Shown: positions 3,328 to 14,008 of the stretch, one piece after another | How positions within the stretch are numbered: position 1 is the stretch's first letter | How the letters are laid out: every line of letters begins with the position of its first letter | DNA from: a virus | Virus genome (UHGV): UHGV-0276404 | Length of the DNA stretch: 14,666 nt | Direction: 5' to 3' (one strand) | The notes under the pieces: model-generated | What the model was told of the DNA's origin: nothing | Database searches by the model: none | The model's input: the letters and a program-made list of their open reading frames with translations, nothing else | Made by a program: the position numbers and the translations under genes

Positions 3328-3343
3328 ATTACCTTTCAGGTGA
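3328..3343. promoter_or_regulatory. Operator-like inverted repeat ATTACCTTTCAGGTGA (copy 1 of the ATTACC-N5-GGTRA family)
   Basis: Intergenic, upstream of the 3420 gene. An extra ATTACC half-site at 3288-3293 and the shared string AACCACATATG also occur upstream of the tRNA unit (10708-10730). Confidence 0.45.
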
Positions 3344-3701: not shown

Positions 3702-4428
3702 ATCGTTTCGCTTTGTGCTCATCCCAGCACGTTTTGCACCATGCCATTAATCCGTCCGCATTTTGATTATTAGGGTAAAAGCTGGTTCGTTTTCTGCGGA
3801 CATTACAAATTGGGCACCACTTCATATGGCGTGTATTCTTTGGGCCATCGAGACACCTTGCACACCACTTAGTCAATCCATCTGGATTTTTTGACGATTT
3901 CCTGAATTTTTCATATGGTAGGTTTATTCTGCATCGCAAGCACTGCTTGCTACCACTTGAAACTCTGTTAGCTGATTCTTCTTTTGGCGGCGATACAGAA
4001 GGTATTCTTGCTGGCTCTGATACTGCCTGAGGTGCTTTTTTAGATGACTGAGACGATATGTCATCACCAGGGAATCTTCCATGATATGCCGGACGCGTTG
4101 ACACTCCAGGTGGAAGCTCAGCTGTAAACGGCTTTGGCTGAATCAGTTGCCTCTCTTTTGCTAACTCCTGCTGTTTATAATATGTCTGGATTACCGCACT
4201 ATCATAAGCAGGAGGTGCGGAAATATTAGGCGCATTACCTCCAGTTTTTTGAAACTGAGTAGAGGTGTGTTCTATCACCTGTGTACGATTAATCGTTATC
4301 TCCCCATCTTCGGTCTTTATCGTTTTGTTATGATTAACGACCGTACGATCAGAGATCTTAGTCTTGTTCTGGTTGATAACGTAAATAATCACCGCAACCA
4401 CACCAACAACTATCCAGAAAACTTCCAT
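3700..4428 (-). CDS. Membrane-anchored protein with four C-terminal CxxC motifs (two zinc-ribbon-like modules); function unknown
   Basis: 242-aa ORF; ATG at 4428 with GAGG 7 nt upstream. N-terminal hydrophobic helix (MEVFWIVVGVVAVIIYVI), then CLRC...WCARC...WCPIC...WCKTC. Transcribed divergently from the antirepressor. Confidence 0.7.
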   Translation of the reverse strand: MEVFWIVVGVVAVIIYVINQNKTKISDRTVVNHNKTIKTEDGEITINRTQVIEHTSTQFQKTGGNAPNISAPPAYDSAVIQTYYKQQELAKERQLIQPKPFTAELPPGVSTRPAYHGRFPGDDISSQSSKKAPQAVSEPARIPSVSPPKEESANRVSSGSKQCLRCRINLPYEKFRKSSKNPDGLTKWCARCLDGPKNTRHMKWCPICNVRRKRTSFYPNNQNADGLMAWCKTCWDEHKAKR

Positions 4429-4447: not shown

Positions 4448-4464
4448 ATTACCTTAAAGGTAAT
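4448..4464. promoter_or_regulatory. Perfect 17-bp palindrome ATTACCTTAAAGGTAAT (operator-like, copy 2)
   Basis: Read directly; sits in the divergent promoter region between the 3700-4428 gene and ant. A partial copy (CTTTCAGGTGA) follows at 4471-4481. Confidence 0.5.
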
Positions 4465-4556: not shown

Positions 4557-4825
4557 ATTTACATCGCACTCCTCTTGTGCCATAGTAATCGGGTACTGGC
4601 AAAATCCAGTGCCGGGATTGGCGTCCCGAGTTACTAAGTGGCGCATACCACGCCAGACGTGGTTTTTTTATGCGTTAAGCACAGCTATATCCGAATTATG
4701 GTGGGCTGGGCAGGGGTCCGAAAGGACGCCGGTACCACTTAGGCCGGTACGCCAACCTTGTCCAGTTCACCACCAGTAATTGGCGTTGCGGTGGTGATTA
4801 AAATCACTAAGTGGAGATAACCACC

Positions 4826-5536
4826 ATGGCTAATGCTCAAACTGCCATCTTCAAATTTGAATCTGTTAACCCTATCCGTTCCATCATTATCGATGGCCAA
4901 CCATGGTTTGTAGCCCAAGACGTTTGTAGTGCGCTGCGTATCCAAAACGTCACCCAAGCACTTGAAAAACTGGATGATGATGAAAGGTCTATGTTCAACA
5001 TAGGGCATGAACATCGTGCAATTTTTGACAGCCGAGTAAAAGAGATCAACATCATCTCCGAGTCAGGCCTCTACACACTGATCCTCCGCTGCCGCGACGC
5101 AGTGACACCAGGCACTATCCCCTACCGCTTTCGTAAATGGGTTACAGGTGAGGTTCTTCCTCAGATCCGCCGCACCGGAAGTTACATTAAAAACTCGCTC
5201 CCGCAGGAAGAACGCATAAAGATGGTTGCCGACCAGGTTGCAAACGCCACAGCATCAGCAGTGATGCAGGCAATGAAGATAGAGAACAAAACCTACAGCG
5301 CCCCGCTGAAGCCCGGCTACCGCAGCCTGATTCACTCGCCGTCTGGTGTTCTCGGCCTGACGGAGAACTCACTGCTGATGAATCTGCTGAACCAGTTACA
5401 GGAAGACGGGCACGACGTATCGGGCGCGGCGGCGGAGCTGACCACCATGTTCTGCTACATCGTCGGTGTGAGCAAATGCCTGCGTGATATCCAGACGCAC
5501 GCGGAATACATCAACGACAAGGCAGGGTTCTTCTGA
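4826..5536 (+). CDS. ant: Phage antirepressor with N-terminal Bro-N domain
   Basis: ATG at 4826 with GGAG at 4813-4816 (the ORF-track GTG at 4811 overlaps the SD). N-terminus FKFESVNPIRSIIIDGQPWFVAQDVCSALRI...GLYTLILRCRDAVTPGTIPYRFRKWVTGEVLPQI fits the Bro-N/AntA fold. Confidence 0.85.
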   Translation: MANAQTAIFKFESVNPIRSIIIDGQPWFVAQDVCSALRIQNVTQALEKLDDDERSMFNIGHEHRAIFDSRVKEINIISESGLYTLILRCRDAVTPGTIPYRFRKWVTGEVLPQIRRTGSYIKNSLPQEERIKMVADQVANATASAVMQAMKIENKTYSAPLKPGYRSLIHSPSGVLGLTENSLLMNLLNQLQEDGHDVSGAAAELTTMFCYIVGVSKCLRDIQTHAEYINDKAGFF

Positions 5537-10473: not shown

Positions 10474-10680
10474 TTACTGACCAAGCAGCGTTTTACCGCT
10501 GGTATTAGCGGTTGATGTGTCACCCTGAGAACCGGTAAGCAGCGTAGAACTACGACCAGCAGCAGCGCGACGGCGACGAGTTTCTTCGTCGCGGGCATCA
10601 ACAACGGCGGCATCCTGCTCCTGTGGTGCTGCCTGAACTTCTGGTGTTGCAGGCACTGACGGTGAGCTACCCATGCACAT
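10474..10680 (-). CDS. Small Ser/Thr/Ala-rich protein (68 aa) upstream of the portal fragment; possibly T7 gp6.7-like
   Basis: ATG at 10680 preceded by CGGAGTCATTGAT, a near-duplicate of the translation-initiation region at 10459-10475. Preferred over the overlapping frame 10461-10700, whose stop would overlap the next gene's SD. The gp6.7 analogy rests only on size, position and the MC- start. Confidence 0.4.
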   Translation of the reverse strand: MCMGSSPSVPATPEVQAAPQEQDAAVVDARDEETRRRRAAAGRSSTLLTGSQGDTSTANTSGKTLLGQ

Positions 10681-10769
10681 ATCAATGACTCCGTACGCAA
10701 TTAAATTATTACCAATTTAACCACATATGATTTATTTATCGTAGACAGTTGACATTTAACGCACGAATT

Positions 10770-10785
10770 ATTACCTTTCAGGTAA
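10770..10785. promoter_or_regulatory. Operator-like inverted repeat ATTACCTTTCAGGTAA (copy 5), overlapping a candidate promoter (TTGACA at 10750-10755)
   Basis: TTGACA, a 15-nt spacer, then the motif; heads the plus-strand tRNA unit. An upstream half-site at 10708-10713 and AACCACATATG at 10719-10729 mirror the arrangement at 3288-3343. Confidence 0.45.
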
Positions 10786-11107
10786 GCAAATGGTTCATTC
10801 CGGTTATTAACCTGACTGGCTTGTCGTTAAATTGAACAGGTGGAGTGAGCTTTTATTTTGAGCAGTACGGCGTATGGCACATGCGCCGATAGCGGTCTGG
10901 ATACGTTTAAGGGGCACCCTCCCTTGCTCGGGCAAACGAACCAGGTAGCCGGAATGTGCAAGTCGAGCGGTTTTATTCCGCGCACGGGGATTCACCATCC
11001 CGGCGATTCGGTGTGACGCCTCGGAAGAGACGAGGGTACAACGATGAGAGCATTTATGGAGCCGCGACAAAGTGTGGCGCCTTAACAGGCTAAGTGCTCT
11101 CAGCGTT

Positions 11108-11184
11108 GTGGCATTAGCTCAGTTGGACAGAGCAACCGCCTTCTAAGCGGTTGGTCGCAGGTTCGAATCCTGCATGCCACGCCA
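11108..11184 (+). tRNA. tRNA-Arg (anticodon UCU, reads AGA)
   Basis: Hand-folded cloverleaf: acceptor GTGGCAT/ATGCCAC, D-arm GCTC-AGTTGGACA-GAGC, anticodon arm ACCGC-CTTCTAA-GCGGT, variable TGGTC, T-arm GCAGG-TTCGAAT-CCTGC, discriminator G and encoded CCA. 77 nt. Confidence 0.9.
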
Positions 11185-11227
11185 GAATCACGCCTAAGGA
11201 CCGTGATGCCAGAAGTTCCAGGGGCTT

Positions 11228-11270
11228 GGCGGTGATGGTTTCCCTTGAAGGACTATCACCGCCCTTTTTA
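11228..11270 (+). terminator. Hairpin (GGCGGTGAT ... ATCACCGCC, 18-nt loop) followed by CTTTTTA, 3' of the tRNA
   Basis: 9-bp perfect inverted repeat plus a short U-run; may be a tRNA 3'-processing structure or terminator. Confidence 0.4.
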
Positions 11271-11347
11271 CAGCAGGACGCCATTGCGATGACTTCATGC
11301 TGTAAACCAGTACAGCCACGGAAGGCATAACTCATTGCTTCCAGTTC

Positions 11348-11371
11348 GCCCGGTTCGCCGGGCATTTTTTT
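11348..11371 (+). terminator. Intrinsic terminator GCCCGG-TTCG-CCGGGC + ATTTTTTT, abutting the SD of the 11383 gene
   Basis: Canonical GC stem, 4-nt loop and 7-U run; the SD AAGGTGAG begins 1 nt after the run. Confidence 0.7.
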
Positions 11372-11382
11372 AAGGTGAGATT

Positions 11383-11739
11383 ATGAACGACCAGCAAATC
11401 GAAAAAGAAATCGTTGAGAAAGGCAAAACCGCTCCGCGAGTTACGCCTCAATATATCGAAAGCATCATTCTTGAAGAGCATTTCTTTACTGCTTATGACG
11501 GCATTCGTGCTGCCAATATGGGCGTTGGCGATTCATGGACAGCGCATAAATCTACAGACCTCCTGACTTTCTGCGTATTGGTACTGAAGAATGGCTTCAC
11601 CGTCACCGGAGAGAGTGCCTGTGCAAGTCCGGAAAATTTTGATGCAGAAATTGGTCGGAAGATTGCCCGGCAGAATGCTGTAAACAAAATCTGGATGCTC
11701 GAAGGTTACTTGCTGAAGCAGAAGTTAAGCGAGCAATAA
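11383..11739 (+). CDS. Hypothetical phage protein (118 aa)
   Basis: ATG at 11383 with AAGGTGAG upstream; good coding look. Family not confidently recognised; a resemblance to the Gp49/Sf6 gp66-type small phage proteins is only a guess. Confidence 0.75.
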   Translation: MNDQQIEKEIVEKGKTAPRVTPQYIESIILEEHFFTAYDGIRAANMGVGDSWTAHKSTDLLTFCVLVLKNGFTVTGESACASPENFDAEIGRKIARQNAVNKIWMLEGYLLKQKLSEQ

Positions 11740-11743
11740 CACC

Positions 11744-11755
11744 GTGACATGTCAC
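11744..11755. repeat. Perfect 12-bp palindrome GTGACATGTCAC (copy 2 of 3)
   Basis: Read directly; 5 nt after the stop of the 11383-11739 gene and directly before a hairpin terminator. Confidence 0.9.
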
Positions 11756-11756
11756 A

Positions 11757-11788
11757 AACAGCCAGCCGATGAGCTGGCTTTGTTTTAT
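11757..11788 (+). terminator. Hairpin (AAACAGCCAGC / GCTGGCTTTGTTT, one bulge) with U-rich tail at the convergent junction with terL
   Basis: 7-bp perfect core AGCCAGC/GCTGGCT, 6-nt loop, then TTTGTTTTAT. Confidence 0.5.
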
Positions 11789-11829
11789 CCTCATCAGAGG
11801 ATATCAACGACATTATCCCCACTAGCGGA

Positions 11830-13305
11830 TTAAGCATAGGGATCGTAATCTGTGATGGCCTTGCCTTGCTGGTTCTGCTGCCCGGGAATTCGCAGACGCT
11901 TTGACACAGGGAAAGCAAACGTCAGCAGTAGCGCATCGCCTTTACCAGGAGAACGCCCAAGCCGCTCCTTGATATCTTCCTTCGGTTCGATAACGATTTT
12001 ACCGTCCACTCGAACTTTATACTCTGCCGCCGACAGGTCGTCCGCTGTTTCCTGGTCATCCAGCATCCCGCCCAGCCTCAGCCATGTCTTGCATGAGTTG
12101 AACATCTCCCCACGCTTGTTGAGCATCTGCGGGTCAGTAGACGCGCCACCGAACGGAACAAGTTGCCATGTGCGCCCCCAACCATCACCGATTGACTTCA
12201 GACCGGTACCGTAACCGAAGTCGATGAACACCGCGTCAGCCTGATACTGGTCTTCAAAGTCAGCGATACGCTTCGCCATAATCAGATCGTCGGTGGTCTT
12301 GTTACCAGTCCATAGCACCTTACTGTGCAGCCCCTGCCGCAGGTATATCACAGCGTCATCAACGCCGGAGTATGCCGGGTCAACGCCGATTATCACCGGA
12401 GCATGCGCCACCTGCGCAGCGGTTACCACCCGTTTCATTGCCTCATCAGTAAGACCGGTAGGGATAAACTGCAATTCAGATGCATCAGGGAATATGCCGC
12501 GCACACGGATTTTAACGAAGTCGCTATCTTCCCCGTAGTCATCAACCCATTTCTGCAACTGCTGTTTGTTAGTGCCTTCCACCGTCCGGCTGTCAATCTG
12601 CGCAGTTTTCCAGCGGTGTTTATATTTGCGGAAACATTCGCGGAAACGCCCGGTGTTACGAGTAGGGTTTCCGAACGCCACCCAGATAATCTCAGTGTCT
12701 TCGTCCGTAAGCGCACCCTCAGCAACTTCCCACACCAGATCCGCAATGTTCGACGCTTCATCGAATACCACGATGATGCGTTTGCGCTCGTTGTGTAGTC
12801 CGGCGAATGCCTCAGTGTTGTGCTCAGACCAGGGGATTGCGTCAGCTCGCCACCGCTTGTCGTGCCCAGGATCATTGCTGTACATCGCGGTAGCGGTACA
12901 GGTAAACCAGTCTTTCGTGATAGCAAGGTTCGACCACTTGATAATTTCCGGCCAGGTCTTCGTTCGTAGCTGGTTGTCGGTGTTGGCGGTCACCACGACC
13001 TTACAATCCTCGCAAGTGGACATGCCCCAGTTGATCAACATTGAGATGAATGCTGATTTACCAATACCGTGGCCCGAAGCACGTGCCAGCATAAGCGGCT
13101 GATAGCGCGTCTCGGGATTCTGCAGGTGATCACGTATCTCTCGGAACGCATCGGCCTGCCACTGACGTAGGCCGGTAGCATGTGCCAGTTCAGTCCCCTC
13201 TTCCCCCCACGGGAACGCATAGAGGGCATAGCCAAGCGGATCGTGAGTGAACCCTGCAATATCCTCGATCAACTGCTCTTCAGGAGATAACGCTGCATCT
13301 GTCAC
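11830..13305 (-). CDS. terL: Terminase large subunit
   Basis: 491-aa ORF. Walker A-like ARASGHGIGKSAF and acidic nuclease-type motifs (IIVVFDEASN, VIIGVDPAYSGVDD). GTG start at 13305 overlaps the TerS stop (GTGA) with AGGATGG upstream. Confidence 0.9.
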   Translation of the reverse strand: MTDAALSPEEQLIEDIAGFTHDPLGYALYAFPWGEEGTELAHATGLRQWQADAFREIRDHLQNPETRYQPLMLARASGHGIGKSAFISMLINWGMSTCEDCKVVVTANTDNQLRTKTWPEIIKWSNLAITKDWFTCTATAMYSNDPGHDKRWRADAIPWSEHNTEAFAGLHNERKRIIVVFDEASNIADLVWEVAEGALTDEDTEIIWVAFGNPTRNTGRFRECFRKYKHRWKTAQIDSRTVEGTNKQQLQKWVDDYGEDSDFVKIRVRGIFPDASELQFIPTGLTDEAMKRVVTAAQVAHAPVIIGVDPAYSGVDDAVIYLRQGLHSKVLWTGNKTTDDLIMAKRIADFEDQYQADAVFIDFGYGTGLKSIGDGWGRTWQLVPFGGASTDPQMLNKRGEMFNSCKTWLRLGGMLDDQETADDLSAAEYKVRVDGKIVIEPKEDIKERLGRSPGKGDALLLTFAFPVSKRLRIPGQQNQQGKAITDYDPYA

Positions 13306-13898
13306 TGATTACCATCCTGACGTTCTTTGAGTCGCTTCCTGGCTGCTGCTATGCGATCAGCAATTGTCACATTCACATTAACATCCAGACGTTCTTTGAA
13401 CGCGTTGACATCAACATGCTTACCAATCAGCTCAAGGTTCTTCACCTTGTCAGGCCATTTAATTTTTTTGAGGATTGTCTCTATCGAATCCTCGTTCATG
13501 TTCATGATGGTCGATGACAGATCAAAGCCACTAAGCGTAGTGCGCCAGATTTTCGGCCACTCACGGATTGGTTTAAGGCTCCCATCGTCGTTGAGGATGT
13601 CGATCACATCCATCTGGTCGATCTCCACCAGGCGCATAAGAACGTAATCGGCACTGACGCGCATTCGTTTGTTGCGCTCCTCCATCAGCTCGGCAATCCG
13701 TTTTTGAATGCGTTCATCGCGCATCATGACACTGGCTTTAACTGCCGCTGTATTTGGGGAGAATCCTGCGTTAATCGCTGCCTGAGTCTGGTTTTCAGGC
13801 GTTTTGATGTATGACTGGCAATAAGCCTCCTGCATTGCTGTTAGTGGCTTAAATTGCGTTGATTTGCGTTTATAGGTTTTAGGTTCAGCAGGCATCAT
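13302..13898 (-). CDS. terS: Terminase small subunit
   Basis: KPLTAMQEAYCQSYIKTPENQTQAAINAGFSPNTAAVKASVMMRDERIQKRIAELM is a typical TerS DNA-binding N-terminus. Start placed at the ATG pair 13898/13895, because an intrinsic terminator (13941-13967) lies inside the ORF-track N-terminal extension from the TTG at 13976. Confidence 0.8.
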   Translation of the reverse strand: MMPAEPKTYKRKSTQFKPLTAMQEAYCQSYIKTPENQTQAAINAGFSPNTAAVKASVMMRDERIQKRIAELMEERNKRMRVSADYVLMRLVEIDQMDVIDILNDDGSLKPIREWPKIWRTTLSGFDLSSTIMNMNEDSIETILKKIKWPDKVKNLELIGKHVDVNAFKERLDVNVNVTIADRIAAARKRLKERQDGNQ

Positions 13899-13940
13899 AA
13901 CCACCGTGGTAATAGTTACCGTTGTGGTAATAGTACCATG

Positions 13941-13967
13941 CAAAATAAAGCCGCCATAGTTGGCGGC
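13941..13967 (-). terminator. Minus-strand intrinsic terminator GCCGCC-AACTAT-GGCGGC + TTTATTTTG upstream of terS
   Basis: 6-bp GC stem and 6-nt loop, followed on the minus strand by a U-rich run. Confidence 0.5.
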
Positions 13968-14008
13968 AGTATTCAAAACCCATCAAATTCATCATGCATA
14001 ATCTACTC

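Follow-up and report, generated by a model that had tools for sequence, protein, structure and literature searches.

A covarying leader RNA upstream of a phage tRNA-Arg(UCU) gene recurs in temperate Enterobacterales phages, with a possible role in terminator read-through

The DNA analyzed here is a 14,666-nucleotide (nt) stretch of the virus genome UHGV-0276404 (the window), and our subject is the leader that precedes a tRNA-Arg(UCU) gene within it. With a predicted transcription start near 10785, the leader spans ~10785-11107 and contains two structured domains, termed module A and module B. Base changes among their homologues show that both modules form genuine RNA folds on the + strand. Module A represents an RNA family that is widely distributed among temperate phages of Enterobacterales and has no Rfam entry, and no record that we examined annotates it as RNA; it is found most often in the first ~50-250 nt of the transcript from the early-left promoter (PL) of lambdoid phages without N. 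As for function, we tentatively suggest that the leader may be a device for terminator read-through (antitermination) in cis, by analogy with the put RNAs of phages HK022 and HK639 but with an unrelated and larger fold. The two domains lie in the window as follows:

10865-11042, + strand: module A, a structured RNA domain with helices P1, P2 (outer and inner parts, variable tip), a variable P3, P4 and P5, and a candidate pseudoknot.
11038-11109, + strand: module B, a long hairpin whose tip varies; ACAACGAUGAGAGCAUU (11038-11054) and AAGUGCUCUCAGCGUUGU (11092-11109) form its basal stem.

Module A is a multi-helix fold of ~160 nt, whose helices were derived by hand from a nine-sequence, BLAST-based alignment and a 27-sequence alignment. 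P1 is CGGCGUAU-GGCAC-AUGCGCCG; P2 is a two-part stem (CGGU/GCCG and CUGG/CCAG) around a variable hairpin; P3 is another variable hairpin; P4 is GGGAU-UCACC-AUCCC and P5 is CCUCGG-AAGAGA-CGAGG. Across the 27 sequences, 93.8% of the alignment cells pair as the fold requires, 13 of the 30 pairs change on both sides, and none of 500 shuffles does as well; sliding the pairing partners cuts the pairing to 29-42%. When 65 distinct sequences are aligned with a model, pairing is 94.1% and double-sided changes appear in 148 cells. Some pairs are almost universally U.G (in 62 and 64 of the 65 sequences), which would become A.C on the other strand; thus, the RNA is read from the + strand. The loop of P4 (CACC) can also pair with a GGUG located 13 nt downstream. 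Pairing of this candidate pseudoknot holds in 99.2% of cells, and six distinct sequences have AACC/GGUU instead (C-G to A-U), a switch that is suggestive of a real interaction, although it may have arisen only once in evolution. Hardly any variation is seen in the junctions GGUAGCCGGAAUGUGCAAG and GGCGAU.CGGUGUGAC. A 17-mer taken from the first junction served to collect most of the sequences, which makes the invariance of this junction among them partly a matter of construction; the junction was invariant already in the nine BLAST-derived sequences.

A search of the window with our model of module A (R1) returns a single copy, scoring 143.6 bits (E = 9e-45). An earlier reading, made from the sequence alone, had proposed an Rfam scan of the leader. 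No Rfam family matches the 10790-11107 region; with Rfam 15, at the gathering threshold and at E-values up to 10, the only matches in 10650-11420 are the tRNA, its antisense mirror image and terminator-driven matches with E >1. That reading had also seen no credible open reading frame (ORF) in the leader, and this holds: homologue lengths differ by non-multiples of 3, the invariant junctions lack third-position variation, and the changes in stems are compensatory, with conservation that tracks base pairing. We rejected a coding role for module A on these grounds. On the opposite strand, a stop-free frame spans module A in 46 of the 65 copies and accounts for some of the ORFs in databases. Two such ORFs, mEp460_037 (L134, 3443-3811, - strand) and cdtI orf40 (L002, 4282-4737, - strand), run antisense over modules A and B and the next RNA stretch; they are probably spurious, arising from chance frames of G+C-rich RNA.

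The basal stem of module B has 16-17 base pairs. Over the 16 pairs scored, pairing holds in 94.1% of cells and seven of the pairs vary on both strands of the stem, again with 0 of 500 shuffles matching; the copy in the window scores 58.3 bits with the corresponding model (R2). The two modules recur independently of each other. R2 detects module B in the PL leaders of phages LLS and ST64B, both of which are without module A, and finds it twice in the ST64B leader and twice in that of cdtI. In Klebsiella phage SopranoGao, module A is followed by three tandem copies of module B, 210-240 nt apart. Phage P1 (L003, NC_005856) has copies at 1482-1575, 1708-1808 and 1984-2069 and a weaker match at 1043-1127, all on the + strand; the copies in its ban operon sit between tRNA-Thr and tciA, beneath plp and upl on the opposite strand, and these two genes may be spurious ORFs. 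After module B in ST64B comes a stretch with a sub-threshold Rfam match to STnc100 (E = 8.6e-6). Overall, module B behaves like punctuation before RNA payloads, and its long stem, as modeled, could be a substrate of RNase III. An integron attC-like reading of its ACAAC...GUUGUGG was discarded by inspection, as the core sites misfit RYYYAAC / GTTRRRY; no integrase search was made.

BLAST searches with the leader alone find copies ~70-83% identical in unrelated phages. The matches include the lambdoid phages cdtI, mEp460, 2H10, Stx2c and some Stx2a phages; P1, P7, D6 and SJ46; Uetakevirus-like phages of Klebsiella and Enterobacter; SopranoGao; and one phage deposited as a Stenotrophomonas phage. 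Almost all of the matched regions are unannotated, with a hypothetical-protein ORF over the match in mEp460, Ayreon, phiSTEC1575 and Tyrion. Among complete Escherichia coli genomes, 1840 of 5426 have a BLAST match, near full-length in 1472; the 60 matches listed include one hypothetical protein under the match and are otherwise unannotated. One 17-mer, drawn from the most strongly conserved part, occurs without mismatch in >120 viral contigs and at 54 genome loci. R1 confirms 23 of the latter, namely 22 from named Enterobacterales and one on a 1.7-kb contig labeled as a Bacillota metagenome-assembled genome; the remaining loci are taken to be chance matches. Some related phage records annotate the tRNA-Arg, but none annotates the leader, and we found no description of the leader RNA in the literature on the phiV10 tRNA, the STnc100/Pas small RNAs (sRNAs) or N-less lambdoids.

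The genomic contexts of 133 distinct, mutually related copies of module A are:

70 of 133: 3' of a CI-type repressor gene, on the same strand.
43 of 133: Uetakevirus position, as in the window.
9 of 133: before ban in P1-like elements.
2 of 133: lambdoid early-left genes downstream, CI not seen.
9 of 133: unclassified.

CI was identified by Pfam (HTH_3 and Peptidase_S24) for one representative and by tblastn for the rest, using eleven upstream ORFs as CI queries. The arrangement in cdtI is, in order: the cI stop codon, a terminator, the PL promoter, module A at about +45, module B, an STnc100-like stretch, a strong terminator, a second module B, and the first early-left gene. The promoter has a TTGACA -35 hexamer, with the -10 hexamer 16-17 nt downstream assigned as TAATGT by eye or CATAAT by script. 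Early-left genes following the lambdoid copies are YfdP-like, YfdQ/DUF2303, phosphatase, ParB-like and Exc. None of the sampled first early-left ORFs has an N-type Pfam match (the results are ParB-HTH, DUF2303, Exc or nothing) or a visible arginine-rich N terminus, and a scan for downstream N-like ORFs by arginine-rich motif returned only nested, out-of-frame or alternative-frame, or distant ORFs and adds little. A terminator-like hairpin follows module A on the sense strand, between +90 and +900, in 82 of 115 copies, compared with 23 of 115 in the antisense control. In another lambdoid PL leader, on an IMG/VR contig (L028), there are two full copies of module A (3993-4155 and 4800-4960, - strand), ~800 nt apart; an opposite-strand ORF of ~165 amino acids (aa) follows each copy, one of them separating the two.

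A tRNA follows module A in just 23 of the 133 copies. It is always tRNA-Arg(UCU) and starts 163-229 nt past the anchor; in 14 copies, mostly of the P1 type, tRNA-Ile2(CAU) lies just upstream. Given how few copies have the downstream tRNA, we regard it as an optional payload of a more general leader. The sequence-only reading took the leader to exist for the tRNA, a view that does not survive this comparison, as most copies lie in the PL leader of N-less lambdoids and have no tRNA.

Returning to the window, the locus is 99% identical to those of several phages of the genus Uetakevirus (epsilon15 group), namely phiV10, TL-2011b and O157 typing phages 9 and 10. The other features of the locus are:

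10474-10680, - strand: 68-aa ORF, flanking on the side of the portal-side genes.
10749-10777, + strand: candidate early promoter, with -35 TTGACA (10749-10754), a 17-nt spacer and -10 TACCTT (10772-10777).
10770-10786, no strand assigned: repressor operator ATTACCTTTCAGGTAAG, an ATTACC-N5-GGTAAg palindrome overlapping the -10 hexamer.
11108-11184, + strand: tRNA-Arg, anticodon UCU, CCA encoded (ARAGORN; Rfam RF00005).
11228-11269, + strand: terminator-like hairpin T1; hairpin 11228-11263 with 14 pairs and an 8-nt loop, then CTTTTT.
11270-11347, + strand: spacer between T1 and T2, with a small hairpin GGAAGGCA...UUGCUUCC that is also in epsilon15.
11348-11371, + strand: terminator-like hairpin T2; GCCCGG-UUCG-CCGGGC (11348-11363, 6 G-C pairs) with tail AUUUUUUU.
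11383-11739, + strand: cargo gene, 118 aa, of the N4 Gp49 / Sf6 gp66 family (Pfam PF13876, E = 1.7e-34; PHROG 322, function unknown).
11760-11786, + strand: terminator-like hairpin T3, which ends the + strand unit.
11830-13305, - strand: 491-aa ORF, whose homologue is annotated as the large terminase subunit in the epsilon15 record.

The tRNA was described earlier as lying opposite to its flanking genes, and the ORFs at 10474-10680 and 11830-13305 are indeed both on the - strand. The operator-bearing promoter, too, is borne out. The same TTGACA-17-TACCTT (or TACCCT) arrangement is found 5' of module A in other Uetakevirus-type loci. Our promoter scan omitted it because its -10 hexamer is weak, with three of six matches, and reported TAGACA-18-AATTAT in its place; this weaker site overlaps the operator-bearing promoter and is the sole other + strand promoter-like site in 10600-11900. 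The operator palindrome, ATTACC-N5-GGTAAT with up to two mismatches, occurs nine times in the window against 0.5 expected, with starts at 3328, 4448, 4541, 5608, 7179, 8368, 10770, 13897 and 13915. From its sequence and distribution, this looks like the operator set of a phage repressor, and the depositors of the epsilon15 record marked an identical palindrome as repressor-binding (lysogeny). With such an operator over the -10 hexamer, the + strand unit appears to be early and under immunity control. The last two operator copies form a tandem pair inside the 5' end of a 224-aa ORF (13302-13976). Those at 4448 and 4541 lie just 5' of adjacent Rfam matches on the + strand to isrK (4593-4669, 63.5 bits) and C4 antisense RNA (4694-4777, 66 bits), a pair that by sequence match is a P1/P7-type immI antirepressor control region.

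The 10600-11900 segment has four terminator-like sites where 1.4 would be expected. T1, T2 and T3 each have the G+C-rich hairpin and U run of an intrinsic (Rho-independent) terminator and are predicted to act as such. The two hairpins noted earlier on the 3' side of the tRNA correspond to T1 and T2, both terminator-like on the + strand; the T2 stem is followed by ATTTTTTT, with no gap before the ribosome-binding site of the ORF at 11383. The + strand scan of 10600-11900 shows no promoter-like site between the tRNA and this ORF. Because T2 abuts the ribosome-binding site and no promoter follows the tRNA, the cargo gene would be transcribed only by read-through of T1 and T2. In other Uetakevirus-type loci T2 also precedes the cargo gene, with the same or a compensated sequence (GCCCAC-UUCG-GUGGGC), and the cargo slot itself is variable: in place of the Gp49/gp66-family gene of the window, a Klebsiella relative has an unrelated gene annotated as DUF2829 (L008, 3011-3532), which we take to be the Tad2 anti-Thoeris family. 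The segment 11270-11371 (+ strand) is conserved in epsilon15, and its small hairpin plus terminator with a long U tail is the usual 3' end of an Hfq-type sRNA; Rfam gives only weak, terminator-driven matches there (RyhB, E = 1.3).

Several observations together lead us to suggest read-through in cis: the PL slot of module A in N-less lambdoids, the excess of sense-strand terminator-like hairpins downstream of module A, the two same-strand copies in L028, the retention of T2 despite the swapping of cargo, and a cargo gene reachable only via T1 and T2. The region would be an early unit under the immunity repressor, inverted inside the late (virion) region and composed of the operator-covered promoter, module A, module B, the tRNA-Arg(UCU), T1 and T2, a variable cargo gene and T3. 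The leader (module A, possibly with module B) would act in cis on the elongating RNA polymerase, so that polymerases starting at the operator-bearing promoter could traverse the untranslated payload, ignore the intrinsic terminators and transcribe one or more genes beyond them. The tRNA would be a passenger excised by RNase P, supplying AGA (possibly AGG) decoding for low-GC cargo genes. All three settings in which module A is found are repressor-controlled early operons: the lambdoid PL operon, the operator-bearing promoter of the window and the C1-controlled ban operon of P1.

The closest functional parallel is with put. The put RNAs suppress terminators in cis without phage proteins and depend on the zinc-binding domain of the polymerase beta' subunit. 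HK022 putL/putR and the HK639 putL-like RNA occupy the same slot as module A, 3' of PL in N-less lambdoids and 5' of terminators and early-left genes; in HK639 the annotated putL-like RNA occupies exactly this slot. Module A is so placed in cdtI, mEp460, Stx2a_WGPS2 and the 70 copies next to a CI-type gene, and the equivalent in the window is the operator-controlled early promoter. Both are cis-encoded structured RNAs with conserved unpaired nucleotides. The structures differ: put has ~70 nt and two stem-loops (126 nt are annotated in HK639), whereas module A has ~160 nt, at least five helices and a candidate pseudoknot, and is followed by module B. Phages SfII, SfV and SfIV lack N (PMC3851460). 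For LLS, also N-less, the authors suggested in 2025 that a put-like RNA mechanism may be used (PMC12315714). According to Hwang et al. (PMC9378689), put needs no tether to the polymerase by way of the transcript to remain active; excision of the tRNA by RNase P is thus compatible with read-through in cis. We consider it somewhat less likely that module A is, more specifically, an antiterminator RNA of a new class that has RNA polymerase or the elongation complex as its binding target, fills the early antitermination gap of the large group of N-less lambdoids (SfV-, cdtI-, mEp460- and Stx2c-type) and has been borrowed as a portable cassette by Uetakeviruses and P1-like phages, which would use it for the expression of RNA payloads and cargo genes located beyond terminators.

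Phage lambda nutL offers a second comparison. It resembles the leader in being a promoter-proximal signal in the PL leader, and the lambdoid copies of our leader have a boxA-like UGCUCU(U/C), a small hairpin and a long stem. In contrast to nutL, the boxA-like string is paired in a covarying stem and the sampled first ORFs have no N-type match. What we see is thus not a lambda-type nut site, which would have single-stranded boxA plus boxB and N as the first PL gene.

Several points weigh against read-through by module A. The mechanism is argued from position and analogy, and the context counts are not independent, as the sequences are related to one another. LLS and ST64B have the same layout, with terminators, module B and the STnc100-like segment, and R1 finds no module A in either. 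Module A is thus not required for the architecture, and should a single shared module be responsible, it would be B. In P1, module A is ~2.3 kb from Pban and directly 3' of tRNA-Ile, and no terminator was found before ban. Phage epsilon15 (L004, 3048-3121, + strand) keeps only P1 and the start of P2; a deletion from the middle of P2 through T1 has removed the rest of module A, module B, the tRNA and T1, yet T2 and the cargo gene are retained. Module A does not belong to the put family, as no similarity to the put RNAs is detectable: BLAST against the HK022 put regions and R1 searches of HK639 and HK022 gave no match, and local alignment (Smith-Waterman with shuffling) gave z-scores of ~2 or lower. 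A search of the cdtI PR operon for a second module A was also negative, so that the PR-side copy of the putR type has no counterpart there. Finally, module A keeps company with processing-type elements (tRNA and the module B hairpin) in RNA-gene arrays, which would fit a released stable RNA equally well.

Some details of these comparisons can be given separately. The 630-815-nt PL leaders of LLS (L136, 5731-6360, - strand) and ST64B (L137, 27237-28053, - strand) are non-coding and consist of an unrelated 5' RNA ending in a terminator, module B, a further stretch and a strong terminator. A second module B-like hairpin lies 3' of the strong terminator in ST64B; the one in LLS was seen by eye only and is unscored by R2. 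A resemblance of ST64B GUAGCC..GUGCAAGC to module A was lost in an unfiltered model search, and the strings that module A shares with put, ACGGCG..CAUGCGUCG and GGAAGAG, are not significant. The feature named 'RNaseIII' in the epsilon15 record lies 5' of the module A remnant.

The arrays raise the alternative that the locus makes stable RNAs. Module A would then be made early after infection or induction and act in trans, for example as a decoy or partner of a conserved host or defense factor, after release by RNase III-type cleavage at module B and by tRNA processing, with the terminators doing no more than closing an RNA operon. We regard this as the main alternative, doubtful but only somewhat less likely than read-through in cis. 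Stable RNA species 1 and 2 of phage T4 are co-transcribed with the T4 tRNA cluster, and the P1 ban operon (tRNA-Asn, tRNA-Thr and tRNA-Ile, with a dicF-like region) houses module A together with multiple module B hairpins, unannotated there, in the order tRNA-Asn, tRNA-Thr, three copies of module B, tciABC, tRNA-Ile, module A. What our locus has in common with the P1 and T4 operons is the co-transcription of structured RNAs and tRNAs from a promoter that is early and under repressor control. The independent recurrence of modules A and B, in arrays with tRNAs and sRNA-like payloads (P1 ban, SopranoGao, ST64B), favors stable RNAs, as does the occurrence of module A in four unrelated phage backbones and its replacement by unrelated RNAs in the LLS/ST64B slot, which is typical of accessory cargo. 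Module A is dispensable in epsilon15, and the length and invariance of its unpaired junctions suggest that a particular partner binds there. Conversely, module A has no dedicated terminator, and both its target and its processing are purely hypothetical. It is always in the sense orientation, 5' of co-oriented early-operon genes and mostly promoter-proximal, and a stable-RNA role leaves the expression of genes beyond the terminators unexplained.

Three further alternatives are less probable still. The sequence-only reading saw a plain tRNA leader, perhaps with an sRNA like lambda 6S, in a locus whose purpose was to supply a rare-codon tRNA for AT-rich cargo. The tRNA is real and looks functional, and codon usage agrees (below); the tRNA, promoter, non-coding leader, terminators and AGA enrichment of that reading all stand. 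A leader that serves the tRNA does not, as it is conserved without a tRNA in 110 of the 133 copies and covaries as a complex fold. The 6S analogy, which calls for a terminator within ~200 nt of the promoter that a Q protein reads through, fails as well: no terminator-like site separates module A from the tRNA, and upstream there is only a weak hairpin at 10800-10819 with three G-C pairs, so that a short transcript of the pR'-tR' type would lack its promoter-proximal terminator. We consider this explanation improbable. Slightly more remote is a riboswitch-like aptamer in module A that gates early transcription. The compact, pseudoknotted fold with invariant junctions and the position in a 5' leader upstream of terminators would suit one, but module A is separated from T1 by module B and a whole tRNA in the window and by ~150 nt of RNA in cdtI, with no overlapping expression platform; the downstream genes share no metabolic theme, and there is no match to an Rfam aptamer. 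The least probable is shielding from Rho by Nus factors, as in rrn operons, with the 3' strand of module B (11092-11111 and homologues), UGCUCU(C/U)..GUUGUGG, as a boxA/boxC-like site. Several variants read UGCUCUUU, presumably identical to the start of rrn boxA, with a GU-rich, boxC-like stretch next to it, and ~600 nt of the transcript is untranslated. This reading is weakened by the sequences themselves, as the strand covaries with its partner as a stem, and variants such as UGCGCUCC match boxA poorly. Moreover, rrn antitermination acts mainly on Rho-dependent rather than intrinsic terminators, and T1 and T2, being intrinsic by prediction, would not be its main target.

The tRNA itself is ordinary and already known from annotation in relatives. 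Its assignment passes the predictor check proposed with it: ARAGORN reports one tRNA only, tRNA-Arg(tct) at 11108-11184 on the + strand, and Rfam RF00005 matches over its full length with 73.3 bits (gathering score 29). The identity elements for the E. coli arginyl-tRNA synthetase (ArgRS) are A20, C35 and U36/G36. The tRNA sequence has A20 (in a D-loop GGA), C35 and U36, and thus carries the elements predicted to allow charging by the E. coli enzyme. Known phage tRNA-Arg(UCU) genes encode argU-like tRNAs, and tRNA genes are found near stx in Stx phages; like these, the tRNA of the window reads a host-rare codon and adjoins low-GC cargo. It differs in overlapping the module B hairpin by 2 nt (tRNA bases G1 and U2 are the last two bases of the hairpin) and in accompanying a minority of leader copies.

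The proposed adaptation to rare codons also fits the counts. Counted over 16 window ORFs, AGA occurs 6.4 and AGG 6.2 times per 1000 codons, whereas E. coli uses ~2 and ~1. AGA is concentrated in low-GC ORFs, where the putative tailspike (1024 aa) and small cargo ORFs use it 8-24 times per 1000 codons; it is absent from seven of the nine ORFs with a GC fraction of at least 0.50, including the terminase, a 394-aa ORF and the neighboring virion-region ORFs. The enrichment of AGA and AGG in low-GC cargo supports a codon-supply role for the tRNA, which might conceivably also replace host tRNA-Arg cut by anticodon nucleases.

Many lambdoid phages are without N, including Stx-converting and serotype-converting phages; for one N-less phage, LLS, a put-like RNA has been suggested as the means of passing early-left terminators (PMC12315714). 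The leader described here places a strongly covarying, unannotated RNA exactly in the PL slot, and BLAST matches it in roughly one of every three complete E. coli genomes. Whether module A acts in cis or in trans, several ORFs antisense to it are probably spurious. Should module A prove to be an antiterminator, phages would have just two kinds of processive antitermination that are based on RNA and independent of protein, and the module would provide a compact part for synthetic biology. If it is instead a trans-acting stable RNA, it would be one that prophages carry very commonly and express as lytic growth begins.

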